From Escherichia phage CMS-2020a, in sequence record CP054387.1: a stretch of 64,000 nt of DNA, one strand, 5' to 3'. A program made the position numbers and the translations under genes. This document shows positions 5,201-29,749 of this stretch, in pieces. Each line of letters starts with the position of its first letter. Position 1 is the first letter of the stretch. The notes under the pieces are model-generated. The model saw only the letters and a program-made list of their open reading frames with translations. It was not told where the DNA came from and did not search any database.

Positions 5201-6838
5201 CATCTGGCTGCCTGCGCCAACTACCCCCATGATCCCTGCTCGCATCAGTTTGAACGCAACCATCGCGGCCACGACCTTACCGAGATTAATTACCAGCTCT
5301 TGGTTCTTTGCTAACCATTGAGCAAGCTGACGCAACCCATCGATTGCCGTTGTTAACCCCGAACCTAAAGAATTGGCAAACGAAATCCCTTCGGCGCTAT
5401 TCATGATTGAAGCCAGTTCTTTCATCCCCTTCGATAGAGAATCCAGATATCCGGCCTGACCAACCCGATCAGCAAATAACGTGAATGACGTCTGAAGTTG
5501 CGCCAGCGCACCTGTGTAGGTTTGCATCATGTCTTTCGCTGCGTTCTCATTCTCCGCACGCAGACCAACAAACATCAGAGACAACGCCTGTTTTGCCTCA
5601 ACCGTACCGCTGGCAACGGCTTTAGTCAGTTCCCCCATAGTGATGCCTGCTGCGTCCGCCATTGCCTGCATCGCGTTAGGAACGGCTTCACCTAATTGCT
5701 GACGTAGCTCTTCCATTGACACGACGCCCTTACCGGACATCTGCTGAACGGCCACAGCCGCACGTTTCAACAGCTCACTATTACCACCAAAACGAGCAAC
5801 GGAGTCCACCAGCGCCTTCAGAGAACCATCGGTTGGATCTAAGCCAGCAGAACGAAACTTCACGAAGGAGTCTGTTAACGCCTGCATCGCGAACGGCGCA
5901 TTTTGAGCCATGTCTACGATGTACTTCATATCATCAGCGGCAGCCTGGCCCGGGTTGGACTTCTCCTTATTCAACCCTCGAAGCATCACCCGCATACGTT
6001 CCATTTCGGCCGCAGCTTCAATAATAGGCTTCTGCCAACCAAACATGATACTGGTGACGGTTCTTGCAGCATCTCCGATCTCACCAAGCAGGAAAATGTT
6101 GCCACGAAGGCCAGAGAACATACTGCCTTCGTTATTTTTACCGATATGCCAAGAGTAACCACCACGTCCACCGCTACCCCCACCATTTCCGCTTCCTGAT
6201 GTGCGAACGCGTACAGGCTTGTTAATCAGTTGCTGACGTCCGATAACTTCGTCCATCTGCTCACGAACTTTTTTTAGTCCCTCGGCAGCCTGGCTTGTTG
6301 TCACACCCCAATTACTGAGTCGCTTCGTCGTGGTATTAAGGCGCGTATTCATGCCACTCACGGACGCAGAGGCTTCTTTGACCTCCGTACCAAAACGGCT
6401 TGCGCTTTTGCTTGCATAGGTCGCCCAATCAGAGAAATCATTTAGCTCTGATTGCACTTTACGTAATGACGCGGTGAGTTTATCTACTGAAGAAGTTGTC
6501 GTATCGACGCGCTCAATCAGGGCTTTAAGACCAGAATTGAGGCTGGTGATGTTGCCACGCATTTTACGCGTAGCATCTGAAGCAAGCTCAAAACCGGCAG
6601 CTACATCCTGTAGTTTATCTGCCGTAGAATCGAGCTTGCTTTCCAGAACGCCAATGATACGGGCGACCGAACCCAAAGAGCGTTCAAAGGTTTGGATTTT
6701 TTGAGCAGGCTTTGTTACCTGCTCACCAAATCGAGTAAGCAGTTTTCCCGCACGATCGATTGACGCTGTAAACTGTTTGTCTTCCAGCGACAGGATAAAC
6801 TCTACGTTTTGTGACATTCCCTTGTCATCCTCTGCCAA
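2255..6838 (-). CDS. tail tape measure protein
   Basis: 1527-aa ORF, long Ala/Gln/Lys-rich helical stretches and Gly-rich segments, located between G/T chaperones and M/L/K. Confidence 0.8.
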   Translation of the reverse strand: MAEDDKGMSQNVEFILSLEDKQFTASIDRAGKLLTRFGEQVTKPAQKIQTFERSLGSVARIIGVLESKLDSTADKLQDVAAGFELASDATRKMRGNITSLNSGLKALIERVDTTTSSVDKLTASLRKVQSELNDFSDWATYASKSASRFGTEVKEASASVSGMNTRLNTTTKRLSNWGVTTSQAAEGLKKVREQMDEVIGRQQLINKPVRVRTSGSGNGGGSGGRGGYSWHIGKNNEGSMFSGLRGNIFLLGEIGDAARTVTSIMFGWQKPIIEAAAEMERMRVMLRGLNKEKSNPGQAAADDMKYIVDMAQNAPFAMQALTDSFVKFRSAGLDPTDGSLKALVDSVARFGGNSELLKRAAVAVQQMSGKGVVSMEELRQQLGEAVPNAMQAMADAAGITMGELTKAVASGTVEAKQALSLMFVGLRAENENAAKDMMQTYTGALAQLQTSFTLFADRVGQAGYLDSLSKGMKELASIMNSAEGISFANSLGSGLTTAIDGLRQLAQWLAKNQELVINLGKVVAAMVAFKLMRAGIMGVVGAGSQMVSTFATMATAIQTPFNLGATAVTRFNRAARMGLAPIPSLIFAIRGAITGLKGAFAGLTAFIAANPIGAAFTVATVAVAGLITYMTMLRSETSKVVDEIRKIPEAMTAAKRAQMAEYKARLEQQITQKEQELKSGEKVVYGPGMAGTTVKINQDERKRIENELNDLRKKRDKTTGAIERGDIAVAKRLAKDAAESQIEKIREENRDFAATFVKARQEALDKIQKINDDGSLSDDEKNKLLAPLRETVNKSYLEPAQKLVDSLSSRKNAVEGQIATLNDQLEKAKKEGNTEQIKKLQGSIRGYQENLEVVAQELTQAEFERDNAAKTGKGVMSNQGTVLGLGTTDKAAQKALAQYMRNQMDSATYQRTLPDGTPMMDFEGKPIIGPKQLKTQLNLQKASSASSLEKMSDEERAAAIAALTKAREQDAAAAEKAAQRSANASQRAAKKEQAAQQKLAAGYQKALDKADQLMGQMGESSKATVSFDQSLRDTTKSLTDLANAVPNEFITQEMIDKAKKRLEDLKNATPEYREMFNRRNVEQMISTWAPESDSIISAGYTPSREEKVADFEDTYNRNLKALIELRDKASDPKVVALYTKKINQLIAAGNTALIKETGTATQKLALEYENLAEQIESTWTDLFSGLTDVLTDFVINGKMSFSSLSQSILKDITNMVVKSQITLPLMNMLGMGTTAAGSSQSGNLLTGVASAVANQGVRMGNTVNGDKSVGEATKETSSSVTGLGQTTQQTTSAIGTATNAIGSWVSGLFDSTEAKDAETKAVKDSIFSMQNLSSVTGALSAAFAMLGANASGSGNKWLSFGATVASGLVSAWAGGGFDSVTSSSAKTATSSVADGTKGIPAIPKFANGGIFGKDGVIPLRAYQKGGIANSPQLALFGEGDMNEAYVPLPDGRTIPVTLSTDGMSGGGNVLSPVSIEINVHSDGSTTESGDTESIWNNAAQRMKAIALETIAQEKRPGGSLNPNTQRN

Positions 6839-19796: not shown

Positions 19797-21356
19797 ATGA
19801 CTGTTCGGATTGTATCTAACGCAGTAAATGCGCTTATTTCTGGCGCAGATGACAAGGTAAAGCAACTGGTGCAGCAAATGTTGAGCTACGAAGTCGAGGC
19901 TGGCGACTGGAAGGGCACAAGCACAATGTTCAACTGGAGCAAAAACTCGTTCCCTGCTGGCTTTGCCAAGCCCGTGGCGGCTAATTTGAACAAGGCGGGC
20001 ATCAAATGTGTTCATATCCGCAAAGACAAAGCCCCGGCGCTTGGTAAACCAAATCCGGCGGTTAACCCATTCCCATACAATCCTGATTATGCGTATCAGG
20101 ATCAGACTGTGGAAACACTGGTTCGAGAGGGAATGATGATTGCGCAGATCGCTACTGGTGGCGGGAAATCTAACGTTGCCTGCAAAGCAGCTGCACGTAT
20201 CGGTCGAATGACATTATTTTTAACAACCCGCTCTGTTCTGATGTTTCAAATGGCCGAAAACTTCCAGAGATCCATCGACTACCGCGCCGAAAATGGCGAA
20301 CCGTGGTTAAAGGGCCAAAAGGTTGGAGTCATTGGCTCGGGTGAGTTCCAGGTATCACGACATATCAACGTCGCTACAGTTCAAACTCTGGCAAGTTTCC
20401 TTGAAGAACCACCACGCGATGCAACACCAGATAAAAAGAGCTACCACCTCAAACGTCGGGAGTTGGTGAAACGCTTCCTTTCAAGTGTGTCTCTGCTTAT
20501 TCTGGAAGAAGCGCATGAGTCTTCAGGCTCTAATTTCTATGACATTGCTAGATTATGTGTGAACGCAGACTATCGTCTGGCGCTTACAGCCACGCCGTTC
20601 ATGAAGGATTCGACGGAAGCCAACATGCGCCTGATGGCGATGGCCGGGCGAATTGAAATTAAAGTCACAGAAAAGTATCTGATTGATCGAGGCATTCTGG
20701 CAAAGCCGTACTTCCTTTATCATAAAGTTGCCTACAAGCCAGACGAGGCCAGAATCAAGGCCGAACTTGCCAACAAACACCTCAATTTTAGAGTTGGTAT
20801 GAGCACCGCCTACCAAAAGGCTTATCAGTTGGGGATCGTGTATAATTTGGGACGTAACGAGGCCATTGTGCGCGAAGCATTGCTCTATAAGCAACATTCT
20901 CTCAATTGCATGACTCTGGTTCGTCTTAAACGCCACGGGCAAATCCTGATGGAGATGATGAAGGAGTCCGGCCTTATAGTTGACTTCATCTATGGGGAAT
21001 CGAACCAGGCGACAAGGCAAGCAAAGCTGAACAGTTTAGCGTCTGGCGAAATAGATGTTTTAATAGGCTCGACTATTCTGGATGTCGGTGTTGATGTGCC
21101 AAGCGTTGGTGCGGTCATTCTGGCTGGTGGTGGGAAAGCAGAAGTTGAAATGAGACAGCGTGTCGGTCGTGGCTTACGAGCCAAGAAGAATCAGGCAAAC
21201 GTGTGTTTTATCACTGATTTCATTGACATTAGCAACAAATACCTGTTGTCTCACTCTTATGAGCGAAAACACATCATCGACACCACACCTGGCTTTGCAG
21301 AAGGTGTATTGCCTGTTGATGGCGCATTCGATTTTGGAGTTCTGAAACGAGATTAG
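19797..21356 (+). CDS. superfamily 2 DNA helicase (DEAH-box)
   Basis: Walker A ATGGGKS, motif II ILEEAHES, C-terminal helicase domain; RBS AAGGAAAGAGG. Confidence 0.7.
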   Translation: MTVRIVSNAVNALISGADDKVKQLVQQMLSYEVEAGDWKGTSTMFNWSKNSFPAGFAKPVAANLNKAGIKCVHIRKDKAPALGKPNPAVNPFPYNPDYAYQDQTVETLVREGMMIAQIATGGGKSNVACKAAARIGRMTLFLTTRSVLMFQMAENFQRSIDYRAENGEPWLKGQKVGVIGSGEFQVSRHINVATVQTLASFLEEPPRDATPDKKSYHLKRRELVKRFLSSVSLLILEEAHESSGSNFYDIARLCVNADYRLALTATPFMKDSTEANMRLMAMAGRIEIKVTEKYLIDRGILAKPYFLYHKVAYKPDEARIKAELANKHLNFRVGMSTAYQKAYQLGIVYNLGRNEAIVREALLYKQHSLNCMTLVRLKRHGQILMEMMKESGLIVDFIYGESNQATRQAKLNSLASGEIDVLIGSTILDVGVDVPSVGAVILAGGGKAEVEMRQRVGRGLRAKKNQANVCFITDFIDISNKYLLSHSYERKHIIDTTPGFAEGVLPVDGAFDFGVLKRD

Positions 21357-21358
21357 TT

Positions 21359-21637
21359 ATGAGTGAAAAGAAAACAACTTATTGCCAAGTGGCATTGTCT
21401 GATAAGGCCAATGAAAAACTTGGAAAATTTCAAATAAAACTCAAAGAGAAAAAAATCAAGATGTCTAAGGCTGAAGTTATCAATGCCATTCTGGAGACGA
21501 TGACTATGGCTGAATTTGACAAAGTCACATCTGCCGTTGGGGTTTCCGCTAAGACGCGTGAGAAAATCATGCGCATCTATGAAAACTCCAATATGACAAA
21601 AAAAGATTTAGAGGAAATACTGAGCAGGTTGCCGTAA
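21359..21637 (+). CDS. hypothetical protein
   Basis: 92-aa ORF immediately after the helicase gene. Confidence 0.4.
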   Translation: MSEKKTTYCQVALSDKANEKLGKFQIKLKEKKIKMSKAEVINAILETMTMAEFDKVTSAVGVSAKTREKIMRIYENSNMTKKDLEEILSRLP

Positions 21638-21702
21638 CATTTCATATTTACCCCCTATCTACTAATTCTATGATGTGCTCACTTGTTAGAAAGAAGCACA
21701 TC

Positions 21703-22269
21703 ATGAGTTGGTTAAAAGAATTATCATTTGTTGACACCACTGGCGCTAAGAAAAATCATTCTTTCTGGAAAGTCAGCGATCCTTCTGATTTTCTTGTTGG
21801 TGCTAATGCTGCTTTTGAATTGCTTAACTTTTATCAACGTTATCCTGAAATGAAACACAGTCCACTCCTGTACAGAATAACAAACGATATGAATAGGTCT
21901 GGTTTATTATCAAGTGAGTCAGCGAAAGGCTTTTTTAGCAAAATAACGCCACACATATCATTCGATGCTGCAAACGAAATTGATTATCTATCCACGAAAC
22001 CTCAAGAACAATTATCTGTACCACCTGAGAAAAAAGAAAGACGAATTGCCAGCATTGAAAATATATCGAAAGAGCTTCGCACAACAACGTTGAGGCTGCT
22101 GAACTTTCTTACGCTACTGAATTGGATAGATGATCAAACATTGATTCCATCAACCGAAGCGTTGGATAACAGAGTCCTTCGTCTAAACAAAAAATCGCAA
22201 TTTGGTTTTGTGTTCACCAAAAAAGGTGAAGATTTAATCAAAAGAAAATATAGATTATTGAATAATTAA
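21703..22269 (+). CDS. hypothetical protein
   Basis: ORF 21670-22269; start placed at ATG 21703 after a hairpin at 21672-21702. Confidence 0.4.
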   Translation: MSWLKELSFVDTTGAKKNHSFWKVSDPSDFLVGANAAFELLNFYQRYPEMKHSPLLYRITNDMNRSGLLSSESAKGFFSKITPHISFDAANEIDYLSTKPQEQLSVPPEKKERRIASIENISKELRTTTLRLLNFLTLLNWIDDQTLIPSTEALDNRVLRLNKKSQFGFVFTKKGEDLIKRKYRLLNN

Positions 22270-22414
22270 TAGTCTACATGCAGGTGTATGAGAGCACCTG
22301 TATGTGACATTCATCACATTTTTTGAAGTACACACCTCCGGCTGAAAAAATTTCTTGATTGGCTGAACGATATTTGTAGGCTTTTCAATTGATAACTAAG
22401 GTCGGATACTGTAG

Positions 22415-22903
22415 ATGAGTATTTCTATAAACAAAATAATTAACTCTTTACGACATAAAATATCACATGGAAAAGATGTTCTTTTTAAAGACAAATATTA
22501 TCTATTCAACTTAGAGCCGTACAAATGTACAAAATTTTATATCACTCGCAACCGTAAATATTCAGTTTCAATCACAAAAGACATGAAGAAAATCTCTTCA
22601 GAAGAGTACTTCATATCACATATTTATATCTACCCATTTAAATTAGAACCATTAAATATAATTCTTCCAACAATAAAAGGGGTTGAACTTGAAGGTTATA
22701 CTTTAAGCTCTAACTTTAATGATATGGGTGTACAAAAACCAGGGACAAGGTCATACTACGCCTACAAAGTAAAATGCAATAACTACAACGCACTTAACAT
22801 GCTAATCAGCAAACTTGAAACGGAGATAGTCGAAGGAAATCTAAATGACGATCATGAAAAATTAGAACAAATAGAAAGACTTAGAAAGTGTGATGTTAAA
22901 TAA
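22415..22903 (+). CDS. hypothetical protein, low-GC accessory gene
   Basis: 162 aa, Lys/Asn/Ile-rich, visibly AT-rich versus the rest of the window. Confidence 0.4.
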   Translation: MSISINKIINSLRHKISHGKDVLFKDKYYLFNLEPYKCTKFYITRNRKYSVSITKDMKKISSEEYFISHIYIYPFKLEPLNIILPTIKGVELEGYTLSSNFNDMGVQKPGTRSYYAYKVKCNNYNALNMLISKLETEIVEGNLNDDHEKLEQIERLRKCDVK

Positions 22904-22918
22904 TTGGATTATCATGAT

Positions 22919-23518
22919 ATGAAAATGAAACTTTCGTTACTCCTTGCTTGCATATACCTCCCGGCGTTTTCCGCCAACGCATTATCAGATTTCGTCTCTG
23001 ACATGCAAAAAACGTACAGCATGTTTACCTCCGAAGACGTAGTAGAATACAAATCACGAGGTCTGAATCAGCCAGTTTGGTTCAGATTCTCAGACAACGC
23101 AGAAGAAACAATACTTAATGGAGGAAAAGAAAGATTACGGTTGCAAATTAACGGGACCGCTGTACCAGAAAACGTTAATGTAAGCTCTGACGAAGCCATG
23201 AAGCCATCTGGAATTGTTTTAGAAGTTCAAGACGGCACACTTTACTGTGATGAAATGGCTACAACAGGTTGCCAAGTAAACATTAGGGTTGGCAATGAAG
23301 ACCCTATCGTTACTTACGCCAAGGCTGAAGGGAATACAAGTGGAAAGGTATTGTTTATCGATGAAAATACCTCAAAACGTATCGTTCGTGACATACAGAA
23401 AACAGCGAACTCTAAATCCGTCGATAAAAAAATCTATGTTGAGGTTCCCTTCTTTGTCGTTGGTAACAAAGAATTTAAATTTGGGTTGCTGAAAACACCT
23501 CTAAGAGTATCAGAATGA
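22919..23518 (+). CDS. secreted/periplasmic protein (signal peptide)
   Basis: N-terminus MKMKLSLLLACIYLPAFSANA then LSD: signal peptide with AxA cleavage site; start placed at the first ATG. Confidence 0.45.
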   Translation: MKMKLSLLLACIYLPAFSANALSDFVSDMQKTYSMFTSEDVVEYKSRGLNQPVWFRFSDNAEETILNGGKERLRLQINGTAVPENVNVSSDEAMKPSGIVLEVQDGTLYCDEMATTGCQVNIRVGNEDPIVTYAKAEGNTSGKVLFIDENTSKRIVRDIQKTANSKSVDKKIYVEVPFFVVGNKEFKFGLLKTPLRVSE

Positions 23519-24039
23519 GAACATTGGACATCACCTACGGCATACCGGCTGAAGTATGGCCGCGAGACTACGAACATGCTGAACGTACCTTGCTCTTCTG
23601 GCGGAAAGCTAAATTTCCTGTCAGAGTCACACTTGAAGATGGTCAGGTGTTTTGCATGTATGTGCAGGGAACAATGTCTTCCCGCAACAAGCTAGATTTA
23701 TGTCCAGCACCGCTTGATAATGACAATCGTATAAGACTCCCACTTGAGCGCATTAGTACAATTGAATCAGGTGTCATTGATGGCATTGCTTACGATTTCA
23801 AAGGGAGACTAACAATACATCCTGACTATGTAGATAACCAGCCATCACGTCGTGACTTTTTTAAGATATGTCGTCAGGCTTACCAAAACGGCAAATCTAT
23901 AAGGGTCTACATGGCAGACGGTCGCGAAATTGAGGGAACGTCAGATGGTGTTGACGCCTGTCTAGTCACACTTAAGTTGGAGGACGGTAGAAAAATACTT
24001 ATTTTCTTCGATTGGGTTGAACGAATCCTTCCGTTCTAA
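23515..24039 (+). CDS. hypothetical protein, possible tandem Sm/Hfq-like fold
   Basis: ATGA overlap with the upstream gene; two internal repeats (VRVTLEDGQVF... and VRVYMADGREIEG...KILIFFDWVERI); terminator follows. Confidence 0.4.
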   Translation: MRTLDITYGIPAEVWPRDYEHAERTLLFWRKAKFPVRVTLEDGQVFCMYVQGTMSSRNKLDLCPAPLDNDNRIRLPLERISTIESGVIDGIAYDFKGRLTIHPDYVDNQPSRRDFFKICRQAYQNGKSIRVYMADGREIEGTSDGVDACLVTLKLEDGRKILIFFDWVERILPF

Positions 24040-24054
24040 TTTCTATAAGGGCAA

Positions 24055-24082
24055 TAACCGGCTAAGTCCGGTTATTATTTTA
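24055..24082 (+). terminator. rho-independent terminator
   Basis: ATAACCGGCTAAGTCCGGTTAT hairpin followed by TATTTT, after the gene ending at 24039. Confidence 0.6.
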
Positions 24083-24327
24083 CATGTCATTCATTTAATA
24101 CCTTTTCAATTCTACCCCGTATAAATATATAAGGTCGAAAGCCGGAATCAATTATTTATTTAGGGAACACCTTCGACGATCTCGCTTTTATTTCTAGGAC
24201 TTTCATCCCTGCAAAAATTTTAAAAAAATCGCTTGCAATCTTTTTTCGCATATCGATAATTGAACTCGTCGAAAGCAAACAAGCTAACGACAAATAAATT
24301 TAAATATTTACATTAAGGAATAAAATC

Positions 24328-24978
24328 ATGGCTAACATTATCATTTCTAAAAAGTCTATCATTGAAGCTGCATCTATTGTATCCGACGAGCTGCGCGAAA
24401 AAGCAGATCTGGCAACTCAAACATATAACGAACATTATAAAAATGGCACGCACACTAAAGCAGACAAAGCAAATATGCAAGCTGCGACCACTAAACTTGC
24501 TTACTTCATCAACAACGTCGTAAACGCAGTAGAAGACGAAAAATTATGCTCTGTTTTCTACTATGCGATTAAAGCAAGCAAACAAGCGCCAGAAGTATTT
24601 TTCCGTGATGCAATGACTAATAGTTATTCACTGGAAAAACTGGTTTATCTGGTTAAATCAATTAAATCTGGTAAATGCGTTTATTCCATCGCTGATATGT
24701 CTGGATCTCGTGTATTTGCTTTAATCGATATGATTAACGACGAGATCGACACGTTCACCAATGGCGCTGTTTTCGATTTAATGAATGAAGCTAAAAAAGC
24801 GTGTGAGATTAAATTGGACGCTGGCTATACTCAAGCCAACCAGTTGATCAATCTTTGCGAACGTCTTGGACTTGTTGAAAAAGTCAAAGGAGCTGGGATC
24901 GCAAAAGCTGGTACTCAGCAATATCGCTTCATTAAAAATGATTTCTACAATTATTTAGCTGACGCTTTCAAAGCGTAA
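24328..24978 (+). CDS. hypothetical protein
   Basis: 216-aa ORF with an AT-rich promoter-like region upstream. Confidence 0.4.
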   Translation: MANIIISKKSIIEAASIVSDELREKADLATQTYNEHYKNGTHTKADKANMQAATTKLAYFINNVVNAVEDEKLCSVFYYAIKASKQAPEVFFRDAMTNSYSLEKLVYLVKSIKSGKCVYSIADMSGSRVFALIDMINDEIDTFTNGAVFDLMNEAKKACEIKLDAGYTQANQLINLCERLGLVEKVKGAGIAKAGTQQYRFIKNDFYNYLADAFKA

Positions 24979-25026
24979 TTAATGGAATTAAGCGCCCATA
25001 GTGGGCGCTTTAAAGGAGCTTTAAAG

Positions 25027-25230
25027 ATGGTCAGCTATGACAAGATCCGCGCGGAATATCGCGCAAAGTATCGCGCTTATAAACTAGAATTAATCGATGA
25101 TTTGATCGCGCAACGCGACCAATTAAATTTTACGTTTTCTGATTTGCTTAACAGCAAGCGAGATTGCAAGCGCAAACGTGAATACTTACGTTTAAGCGCA
25201 TTAATCGGAAAACTTCAAAATTCTATTTAA
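25027..25230 (+). CDS. hypothetical small protein
   Basis: Start placed at ATG 25027 (RBS AAAGGAG) downstream of the hairpin at 24992-25010. Confidence 0.35.
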   Translation: MVSYDKIRAEYRAKYRAYKLELIDDLIAQRDQLNFTFSDLLNSKRDCKRKREYLRLSALIGKLQNSI

Positions 25231-25251
25231 TTTTTTTTAAGGAGCTTAATC

Positions 25252-25482
25252 ATGTTTGTTCTTATCGCTGGCGTTAACGTCCATAATGAATATTATGTTA
25301 ATCGCATCGCTGGGATCGCTGGTTACGCTGGGCGCGCAGTCGAGCTTATAGATGAAACGACGCGCAAAATTGACTTATTGAGCGACCAGGAGCGAAAAAA
25401 AGCAGACGTGAACGACGCTGATATATTTTTAATGTTAAAAGCGTTTGTCGAAATGGGATTTAAAATCAGTTTACACAAATAA
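25252..25482 (+). CDS. hypothetical small protein
   Basis: 76-aa ORF with RBS AAGGAG, followed by tandem terminators. Confidence 0.35.
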   Translation: MFVLIAGVNVHNEYYVNRIAGIAGYAGRAVELIDETTRKIDLLSDQERKKADVNDADIFLMLKAFVEMGFKISLHK

Positions 25483-25486
25483 AATC

Positions 25487-25513
25487 GAGCGCCCACTATG
25501 GGCGCTTTTTTCG
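25487..25513 (+). terminator. rho-independent terminator
   Basis: GAGCGCCCACTATGGGCGCTT hairpin followed by TTTTTC. Confidence 0.6.
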
Positions 25514-25532
25514 TTTCCAATACACCTACCAT

Positions 25533-25560
25533 AACGCGCCAATGATGGCGCGTTTTTATT
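25533..25560 (+). terminator. rho-independent terminator (second of a tandem pair)
   Basis: AACGCGCCAATGATGGCGCGTT hairpin followed by TTTATT. Confidence 0.55.
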
Positions 25561-26097
25561 GTCTTTAACTCACTCCAACAACATAAAAATAAGCGCCAAA
25601 ATAACGCCATAGACGCGCTTTTATATCCTTGTCAGTACATACCCATTACTTAACACATTAACGCGCTTAAAACACGTTATATTGCGCTATAGAGTATGGT
25701 TAATCATTGGCTTTTAGTCTTGCTATGTGATCCGCGTTTATTTGTCGGCGCGGATCGGCATTTTGTTTTGTTCCGTATCCGCTCGCGTATTATGTGCGCG
25801 TGATTTTTCACATAATCACACCACTTAATCACGTATGCGATTACGCTACGAAAGAAATCTGGATGTCTCAGGCGACGAAAGTCATCATAATTTTCCCCGC
25901 TCACCTGTCCGACAACCGCTGGTTGGATTCCACCAGCTTCCCGATGTTTTTTCTACATAAAGGCGAATGCAGCCGTTTCCCGAAAAAATCCTGGCCGTTC
26001 CCCGTCGGTTCATGAATACGTTCCTCGCCGTTTCTGAAAATTTCCCTGCGGCATCTGGTGGCTATAGAGAAAGGGCCGTTACTGGCCCTCTTCTCAG

Positions 26098-29097: not shown

Positions 29098-29749
29098 CTC
29101 TTCATCCTCACTTCGTTTCTATAACGTCTAAATATGCTGTTTACTTGTTGGTGTTATTATCGCAATAAGATAAAGGCGAAAAAGGATTTTATGTCGGGAA
29201 AGCCAGGCTGGGCAGTGAATATCCGGGAACGACACGAGAGCCAGTATTTACGATATTCTGCTCTACGCGCGCCGCGGGGCTGGTGGGTAGAATAATCCTC
29301 TCCCCGAAAACCTACTGAAATCGATTGTGACCCGCTGGCTGTCTGGCACAATTACGCTGTATCTGGCATTCAGAGGGAATCCAGCGGTAAGCAAGTCAGC
29401 CTGCACGTGAGCGCCTCTCTTCTTCCCGCACATTACAGGTGGGTAGCTGCAACTCTCTCGCTATACCGGTACGCCGCCGTTCCTGAACCGGCATCGAGCC
29501 TTTTCCCGAAATCCACACAGGCAACTCGACCGTTTCCCTGAAAATCCCCAGCCGTTTCTGTAGCGTATGCAACCTTTTCTCTGTATGGACCGAAGGCTGA
29601 CCGTAGGGGTGTTACGGGGGGTGATGGTAAGATGTTGAATAAATACGAAAAAGGAGGCGACACACCTCCTTCCCTCTCCACTTATACATACCTGGCTTCT
29701 TCGCTATACATGTTGTGTTTTATCTGTCTCAACCTCTCTATAGGCGTTA

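Follow-up and report, generated by a model that had tools for sequence, protein, structure and literature searches.

What is a relative of a flagellin repressor doing at the end of a phage-plasmid operon, directly behind the gene of an exported protein? This question is raised by a 64,000-nucleotide stretch of Escherichia phage CMS-2020a (record CP054387.1; the window, in what follows), in which three plus-strand genes, here called g1, g2 and g3, follow one another closely. A sequence-only reading of the window had taken all three for horizontally acquired cargo, possibly concerned with superinfection exclusion or with defence or anti-defence. After our analysis, g3 stands apart as a conserved backbone gene of the FljA family. 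The reading that we favour, at evenly divided confidence, is that the locus joins swappable envelope cargo to a co-expressed, conserved RNA-binding translational repressor.

An FljA family gene in the phage-plasmid backbone

g3: 23515..24039, plus strand; 174-amino-acid protein of the PF03614 (FljA) family, with two predicted tandem Hfq/Sm-like barrels; core regulator.

The profile PF03614 ('Repressor of phase-1 flagellin', Flag1_repress) matched g3 with 267 bits against a cutoff of 24 (E 8.8e-80), and the match is full-length, aligning residues 5-171 of g3 with positions 1-170 of the 170 in the profile. Salmonella FljA (P0144) is colinear with g3 at 31% identity over 175 columns (E 2e-32), and the two proteins have in common an N-terminal motif, DIxYGxAExWPRDY, the short motif PVR, and the C-terminal motifs PSRRDxFxIC and FDWVxRI. 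Together, these matches assign g3 to the PF03614 (FljA) family, which had gone unrecognised when the last gene was filed as cargo. An exhaustive HMMER search with the family profile over 1.84 billion representatives returned just 28 matches; therefore, the family is very small. One of the matched clusters is named 'phase 1 flagellin gene repressor FljA [Salmonella enterica]', and the PHROGs label for the g3 family is transcriptional repressor. The gene itself is not new, as some public records call it 'repressor of phase-1 flagellin' or 'transcriptional regulator'. What goes beyond this annotation is the assignment of a fold, the finding that members of the family are, in essence, core genes of phage-plasmids, also in non-flagellate hosts, and the slot for exported cargo that is coupled to it. 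g3 represents a known family in an understudied context. Among its relatives, the RefSeq start of SSU5_121 (5410) looks late; the ATG at 5329 (L002 5329-5856) adds the conserved DITYG...WPRDY.

The surroundings of g3 are not those of FljA: in the window and its relatives, we found no flagellin domain upstream and no invertase or invertible segment. The host E. coli possesses a fliC leader, and a search of the window for sequence resembling that leader gave matches of at most 11 nucleotides, which is chance level.

We identify the window as part of an SSU5/pHCM2-type phage-plasmid of about 109 kb, because p09EL50, a plasmid of E. coli O104:H4 2009EL-2050, shows 100% identity over region 19797-25500, which is also matched by phages PhiR41_1 and Cyrano and, more distantly, by Salmonella phage SSU5. 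The same region is likewise 100% identical to the FDAARGOS_348 plasmid and 94-97% identical to many non-mobilizable E. coli plasmids of about 110 kb.

Plasmid records were counted by tblastn match, with the helicase gene next to the module counted at 60% identity or above. g3 was found in 831 records and the helicase in 823, compared with 65 records for g2 and 23 for g1. By genus, the g3 carriers were Klebsiella (341), Escherichia (229), Enterobacter (92), Yersinia (62) and Salmonella (60), with almost identical figures for the helicase, and Y. pestis accounts for 62 of the g3-carrying records. Part of the module is carried by 130 of the 5,426 complete E. coli genomes and at least 80% of it by 35, all copies being plasmid-borne. 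The synteny of g3 is kept in a Klebsiella lineage at 37% identity and in element L017 at 47%. Wherever the context of a full-length PF03614 lineage could be read, it was a phage-plasmid, except for Salmonella FljA; the contigs of two metagenomic lineages (P0134 and P0142) are too short for context. A scan of genome contigs with peptide patterns gave six loci, the patterns being specific to the phage-plasmid lineage, with chromosomal fljA out of their reach. Overall, g3 is a core backbone gene of the enterobacterial SSU5-like phage-plasmids. Contrary to the sequence-only reading, its orthologues are present in all relatives among these elements, in conserved synteny, and its guanine-plus-cytosine (GC) content is near average.

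A few matches fell outside this pattern. Contigs of metagenome-assembled genomes labelled 'Bacillota bacterium' and 'Candidatus Fimivivens' (L008 and L009) carry SSU5-like sequence, with helicases at 93% and 82% identity, and a protein labelled Gemella morbillorum (P0079) is 67% identical to g3; these are probably the result of mis-binning or contamination. The sole match of chromosomal size to a phage-plasmid-type protein lies on a 5.2-Mb E. coli contig (P0075; 47%, with a locally scrambled alignment), and it may be a decaying integrated copy or a sequencing artefact.

Predicted fold of g3

An AlphaFold2 (AF2) model of g3, built on 27 homologues, reached a predicted local distance difference test score (pLDDT) of 83.8 and a predicted template modelling score (pTM) of 0.80. 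It contains two successive modules of one helix and five strands each (residues 20-85 and 113-173), with the alpha-helix and five strongly bent beta-strands that make up the small barrel of the Hfq/Sm fold. The best 50 PDB matches that Foldseek returned for this model were all Hfq, with template modelling (TM) scores of 0.7-0.83 on the target. The tandem Sm-like folds suspected in the last protein are therefore borne out at the level of predicted structure.

In profile searches, g3 stayed below the cutoffs for Hfq (PF17209, 15.0 bits against 27) and for LSM (PF01423, 13.0 bits against 23.4), and both sub-threshold signals fall in its C-terminal half. Comparison with the Hfq, Sm and Lsm sequences and profiles of the PDB gave E values of 0.2-1.5 only. 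When the N-terminal half was aligned with the C-terminal half by hhalign, close homologues alone gave no significant match; with ten diverse lineages, the halves aligned in register over 49 columns (E 1.3e-4, probability 54%), which lends weak support to the repeat. We found no solved structure for the FljA family, and the literature searched gave no account of FljA as an Sm-like protein.

In summary, the prediction for g3 is a tandem of two Hfq/Sm-like barrels. Each half resembles Hfq and the bacterial Sm-like proteins in its predicted helix and five-stranded bent barrel; unlike them, g3 has two barrels per chain and a conserved disordered N-terminal motif. The likeness to Hfq makes an RNA-binding role plausible for g3, and two fused Hfq-like barrels, if the prediction holds, would account for the mRNA-binding activity of FljA.

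A variable slot in front of the FljA-like gene

In the annotation of p09EL50, an ABC-ATPase and two ParB-like genes on the minus strand are followed on the plus strand by a DEAD/DEAH helicase, small hypothetical genes and a 'transcriptional regulator', and this backbone order recurs in SSU5 and Cyrano. The gene order that is kept runs parB, helicase, orf92, slot, FljA-like gene, a spacer of about 300 base pairs and orf216, and the segment studied here is the distal part of the helicase-side operon. orf92 lies directly 3′ of the helicase in all enterobacterial relatives. Between orf92 and the FljA-like gene lies the slot, which holds orf199, g1 and g2 in the window:

orf92: 21359..21637, plus strand; backbone gene (phrog_1466), left border of the variable slot.
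orf199: 21670..22269, plus strand; first accessory gene of the slot (phrog_13473), GC 35.7%.
Inverted repeat or hairpin 3′ of orf199: 22276..22305, plus strand; 11-nucleotide arms, 8-nucleotide loop, 91% complementary, with no T-run adjoining.
g1: 22415..22903, plus strand; 162-amino-acid cytoplasmic protein, rare cargo, GC 29.4%.
g2: 22919..23518, plus strand; 199-amino-acid periplasmic or secreted protein, predicted to be Sec-exported and processed by signal peptidase I (SPI); uncommon cargo.
orf216: 24328..24978, plus strand; conserved backbone gene (phrog_1513), right border of the module.

Elsewhere, the slot holds zero to three genes, and what it holds can change even among relatives that hardly differ otherwise:

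Empty: L009 and L010.
140-amino-acid lipoprotein with weak DUF2846 similarity: SSU5, Y. pestis pMT1-like elements, Kluyvera, Buttiauxella and pECOH89.
Lipoprotein homologous to the 140-amino-acid type, inverted: Klebsiella pKA2-4.
Unrelated 266-amino-acid lipoprotein on the opposite strand, with orf199: Cyrano.
151-amino-acid relative of the 266-amino-acid lipoprotein of Cyrano: L017.
204-amino-acid g1-like protein with a 118-amino-acid signal-peptide protein: Klebsiella pE17KP0053-3.
g2-type protein without g1: pNT1F31 and L008.
g2-type protein with g1: the window and Salmonella CP053410.

In most relatives examined, the neighbour of the FljA-like gene encodes an exported protein or a lipoprotein, and these belong to non-homologous types. 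The exceptions are L009 and L010, which have no cargo, and L017, where a g1-like gene adjoins the regulator and the lipoprotein gene lies further upstream. For neighbours on the same strand as the FljA-like gene, the stop codon overlaps the FljA-like start or lies 0-9 nucleotides from it, with pE17KP0053-3 (49 nucleotides) as the sole outlier. Between p09EL50 and pNT1F31, the orf92 protein is identical (same accession), whereas g2 and g3 share 54% and 64% identity, which points to recombinational mosaicism at the slot. A signal-peptide protein of about 102 amino acids is also encoded 4 nucleotides after the FljA-like gene in L014 (5029-5337; pECOH89) and L018 (2017-2325; K. pneumoniae pA4); the regulator can thus have exported cargo both upstream and downstream of it.

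orf199, g1 and g2 bear the marks of accessory cargo, with 29-40% GC compared with 46% and, for g1 and g2, presence in 23 and 65 of about 830 plasmids. g3, at 44% GC and in 831 records, does not bear them. The proposal of horizontally acquired cargo thus holds for g1 and g2 (and orf199), which are low in GC, rare and placed in a variable slot, and it fails for g3, which is a core gene.

The signal peptide proposed for g2, the middle protein, was confirmed: it is N-terminal, begins with MKMK, has a hydrophobic core and ends at a site between SANA and LSD. The A-x-A site is conserved among homologues, as are two cysteines of the mature region (C110 and C118). We rejected a lipoprotein identity for g2, because the cysteine of its LLAC sequence is missing in homologues P0090, P0091 and P0094, which keep the A-x-A site; g2 is therefore assigned to the Sec/SPI route. 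The homologues of g2 form 14 protein clusters. Its AF2 model is poor (pLDDT 54.8), and Foldseek found no meaningful fold match for this poor model (best E 0.04, TM at most 0.24). Searches of Pfam, NCBIfam, PADLOC and the PDB gave no match for g2.

g1 forms 3 clusters among 5.8e9 proteins. It had no match above the cutoff in Pfam, none in NCBIfam or PADLOC, and no relatives in the PDB, even with the family profile; YmgB, tried as its identity, was rejected at 18.8 bits against a cutoff of 22.3. Homologues of g1 align from its residue 1 (ATG 22415), so that the start called in p09EL50 by the Prokaryotic Genome Annotation Pipeline (PGAP), 22583, is probably wrong. Remote relatives in the same slot of L013 and L017 share an IYPF core with g1. 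The g1-like family is very AT-rich (29-35% GC) and occurs in three divergent slot forms of 162, 204 and 241 amino acids, with loci at L013 3438-4052, L017 2643-3368, L016 3969-4457 and window 22415-22903. Its genes lie directly upstream of an exported-protein gene or, in L017, of the FljA-like gene itself, where a lipoprotein gene stands just upstream of the g1-like gene on the opposite strand.

For orf199, the true start is probably 21703, since residue 12 is the start in both the PGAP call and the PHROG alignment. The gene is found in the window, Cyrano and pNT1F31, has 42% relatives in Klebsiella pE17KP0053-3 and in Salmonella and L017 elements, and is absent in SSU5, pMT1, pECOH89 and pKA2-4.

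What could the slot proteins do? PADLOC-DB gave nothing for g1, g2, g3 or orf216, and a weak 12-bit SspC fragment for orf199. Because g1 and g2 have no match in PADLOC, Pfam or the PDB, a defence or anti-defence role for them is without support. Superinfection exclusion by the exported g2 is plausible by analogy. Llp of T5 and Cor of phi80 and N15 are small exported proteins or lipoproteins that mask receptors or exclude superinfecting phages and are encoded in 'moron' positions of temperate elements. The slot beside g3 likewise carries small exported proteins in most relatives examined; however, g2 shows no sequence or structural similarity to the Llp/Cor type and, unlike it, is not a lipoprotein. 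The only statement about g1 and g2 that can be supported is that they are rare, selected and horizontally exchanged cargo, one of them predicted to be exported; in other respects they are ordinary ORFan cargo.

Operon structure and base composition

Terminator-like hairpin: 24053..24083, plus strand; AATAACCGG-N6-CCGGTTATT with 100% complementary arms, the hairpin at 24053-24076 being followed by a T-rich tail.

The open reading frames of g1, g2 and g3 were confirmed at the coordinates given above, as was their linkage: g2 and g3 overlap by ATGA, and 15 nucleotides separate the g1 stop from the g2 start. A TTG at 22904, an alternative g2 start, would adjoin the g1 stop. We regard all three as genuine genes under purifying selection, because their ratios of nonsynonymous to synonymous substitution (dN/dS) against diverged homologues are low, at 0.12 for g1 (measured against the Salmonella homologue), 0.11 for g2 and 0.09-0.20 for g3. 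A promoter scan found no sigma-70-like site on the plus strand between 21759 and 24233. The slot genes and g3 probably share a transcript with the helicase operon, which is closed by the terminator-like hairpin, with g3 as its conserved last gene.

The sequence-only reading was right that the stretch from 22400 to 24040 is low in GC (38.4% compared with 46.1% for the window, the 3.5th percentile among windows of the same size). It was inaccurate in calling this stretch AT-richer than its flanks, because orf92 (37.6%), orf199, the spacer at 24040-24327 (31.6%) and orf216 (38.1%) are equally AT-rich. The low-GC block is wider, covering about 21.2-25.8 kb at 37.9% GC, and the lowest-GC windows of 1.64 kb and 4 kb in the whole 64 kb both begin at 21301. 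Within the operon, GC is uneven, rising from 29.4% in g1 to 40.3% in g2 and 44.4% in g3, which is close to the window average.

Two further features of composition were noted. At 29600-30600, about 1 kb shows a strand asymmetry unmatched elsewhere in 15-32 kb, with extremes of +0.46 for GC skew and -0.54 for AT skew. At 25487-25800, where the plus-strand block ends and meets convergently transcribed minus-strand genes, there are many strong terminator-like hairpins on both strands.

The spacer and the orf216 leader

Candidate cis element upstream of orf216: 24125..24291, plus strand; conserved non-coding blocks, a promoter-like site and a leader hairpin.

The spacer behind g3 contains three blocks, ATATATAAGG, ATTTATTTAGGSAACACCTTCGA and TTTTATTTCTARGACTTT, that are invariant in all relatives, even where the neighbouring proteins are only about 37% identical. 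In an alignment that includes the divergent Klebsiella lineage, these blocks are more conserved than the adjoining genes. On their 3′ side, the promoter scan found a promoter-like TTGCAA-N16-GATAAT at 24233-24260, and RNAalifold predicted a 5′-leader hairpin at 24268-24291 with seven pairs, one of them compensatory. The most divergent lineage, L010, has a 7-base-pair hairpin of different sequence at the same position. An Rfam scan of 19-27 kb gave two chance-level matches only. The orf216 leader is a lead as a target of g3, and we treat it as one candidate.

The target of g3 and alternative explanations

FljA blocks translation of fliC mRNA, as summarised in PMC2652032, which cites Bonifield & Hughes 2003 and Yamamoto & Kutsukake 2006. 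Judging from this family knowledge, g3 would act post-transcriptionally as well, binding an mRNA leader and blocking translation. Its distribution suggests that the main selected target would be a transcript other than, or besides, host fliC. g3 has stayed intact in every enterobacterial member, with purifying selection acting on it, and these members include plasmids of Klebsiella, which is non-flagellate, and of Y. pestis, which is non-motile; this argues for a main target beyond host fliC, and the status of g3 as a backbone gene disfavours repression of host fliC as the main selected function. The likeliest alternative target would be a transcript of the phage-plasmid itself, for which the hairpin in the orf216 leader is one candidate. 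On balance, we give equal weight for and against the conclusion that the target is not only host flagellin and is most likely a phage-plasmid transcript. With low confidence, we further suggest that g1 and g2 are co-transcribed with the regulator, g2 being translationally coupled to g3 through the ATGA overlap, and, again with low confidence, that g2 would be an exported periplasmic protein and g1 its cytoplasmic neighbour, the pair forming exchangeable cargo for lysogenic conversion at the envelope, with the exclusion of superinfecting phages as an example.

Several points weigh against this reading. Comparison of Klebsiella with the Yersinia or SSU5 lineages gives a dN/dS of 0.09-0.10 for g3, but the value within Klebsiella, 0.14 between two plasmids, is based on just 12 substitutions. 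If phage-plasmids pass between hosts with and without flagella, as they may, the argument from Klebsiella and Yersinia loses force. Acinetobacter plasmids (153 records, for example L019, A. baumannii pDETAB4) share ParB, the helicase (about 43%) and an orf92-like backbone gene, yet these relatives, from a non-flagellate host, have no FljA-like gene at or near this position. For the leader hairpin, the covariation amounts to one compensatory pair that probably arose only once, and adjacency alone ties the hairpin to g3. For g1 and g2, a function at the envelope or in exclusion is conjecture. In the literature searched, the FljA homologues of SSU5/pHCM2 elements are not discussed. Finally, repression of fliC is the sole characterised activity of the family, and g3 has kept the FljA motifs well; fliC may therefore be a target.

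This last point leads to the alternative that survives best, namely that g3 works exactly like FljA, binding the 5′ leader of host fliC and blocking flagellin translation, so that carriers are de-flagellated. The co-expressed exported cargo would then remodel the envelope, an arrangement that mirrors fljB-fljA and the position of PapX/MrpJ at the ends of fimbrial operons, and carriers would gain by resisting flagellotropic phages, by evading immunity or by saving energy. The full-length PF03614 match with its three long motifs agrees with this, and so does the restriction of the family to Enterobacterales phage-plasmids, mostly in flagellate hosts, with no member in the Acinetobacter relatives. 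Like Salmonella FljA, a colinear protein of the same Pfam family and of about equal length, g3 is the last gene of its operon, and the exported-protein gene lies tightly 5′ of the repressor gene, as in fljBA. Mobile elements are also known to carry working homologues: FljA(z66) of the linear S. Typhi plasmid pBSSB1, which functions as a fliC translational repressor across species, and E. coli repressors of the fljA/flkB type prevent translation of fliC mRNA in a heterologous background (PMC2652032, PMC1876496, PMC3378880). However, those genes, with pBSSB1 compared by description only, have an alternative flagellin gene directly 5′ of them. g3, in contrast, comes after the genes of unrelated exported proteins, has no linked flagellin gene or hin-invertible promoter, and is only 31% identical to FljA. 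It is a backbone gene rather than a moron, found in non-flagellate hosts as well: 341 of the 831 carriers are Klebsiella and 62 are Y. pestis, where there is no flagellin to repress and the gene nevertheless stays intact under purifying selection. In addition, S. Typhi CT18, which carries pHCM2 with this gene, expresses H:d flagella all the same, and O104:H4 strains are typed H4. We consider this FljA-like mode of action, the main rival of our reading, rather unlikely.

A second alternative makes g3 a general Hfq-like RNA chaperone that aids antisense-RNA control of plasmid replication or partition. The predicted tandem Hfq-like fold, the location in the region of ParB, the helicase and replication, and the core status of the gene whatever the flagellation of the host would all fit. 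On the other hand, the Pfam Hfq and LSM scores are below threshold, FljA, the characterised member of the family, represses specifically, neither an antisense RNA nor an Rfam element turned up nearby, and the tandem arrangement with its extra N-terminal motif is unlike Hfq; this alternative is improbable.

A single dedicated system of the defence, anti-defence or toxin type, comprising g1, g2 and g3 and taken up together, is very improbable: tight packing in one orientation, low GC, the co-occurrence of g1-like and g2-like genes in Salmonella plasmid CP053410 and the roughly joint divergence of g2 and g3 between the window and pNT1F31 speak for it, but we rejected it on the discordant distributions of the three genes (23, 65 and 831 records), with g3 elsewhere next to wholly different neighbours or none, g2 occurring without g1 (pNT1F31, L008), g1-like genes with another exported partner (L013) or alone by g3 (L017), and no PADLOC match and no toxin, nuclease or NTPase domain found.

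Implications for the FljA family

A phage-plasmid repressor with a transcript of its own as target would place Salmonella FljA as a specialised offshoot of the family. We tentatively extend this to a bolder proposal, which we consider doubtful at present: the FljA family would be a phage-plasmid family in origin, its members tandem-Hfq-fold repressors translationally coupled to a slot of readily exchanged envelope genes, with a phage-plasmid leader RNA, such as the orf216 hairpin, as the native target and Salmonella FljA as a domesticated copy. If this were true, the repressor that enforces the mutual exclusion of the two flagellins of Salmonella would be a domesticated viral regulator.

For FljA, one of the classic regulators in flagellar phase variation, the predicted structure, if it holds, offers an explanation at the level of the fold. 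The varied exported proteins of the slot form, in turn, a candidate catalogue of envelope-modifying or exclusion factors. The relatives of FljA are overwhelmingly core genes of a large and clinically widespread family that includes pHCM2 of S. Typhi, pMT1 of Y. pestis and the SSU5-like elements of E. coli and Klebsiella. This raises the question of whether these phage-plasmids silence the flagella of their hosts or whether their repressors serve an older, virus-internal RNA target, from which the Salmonella repressor would have come.

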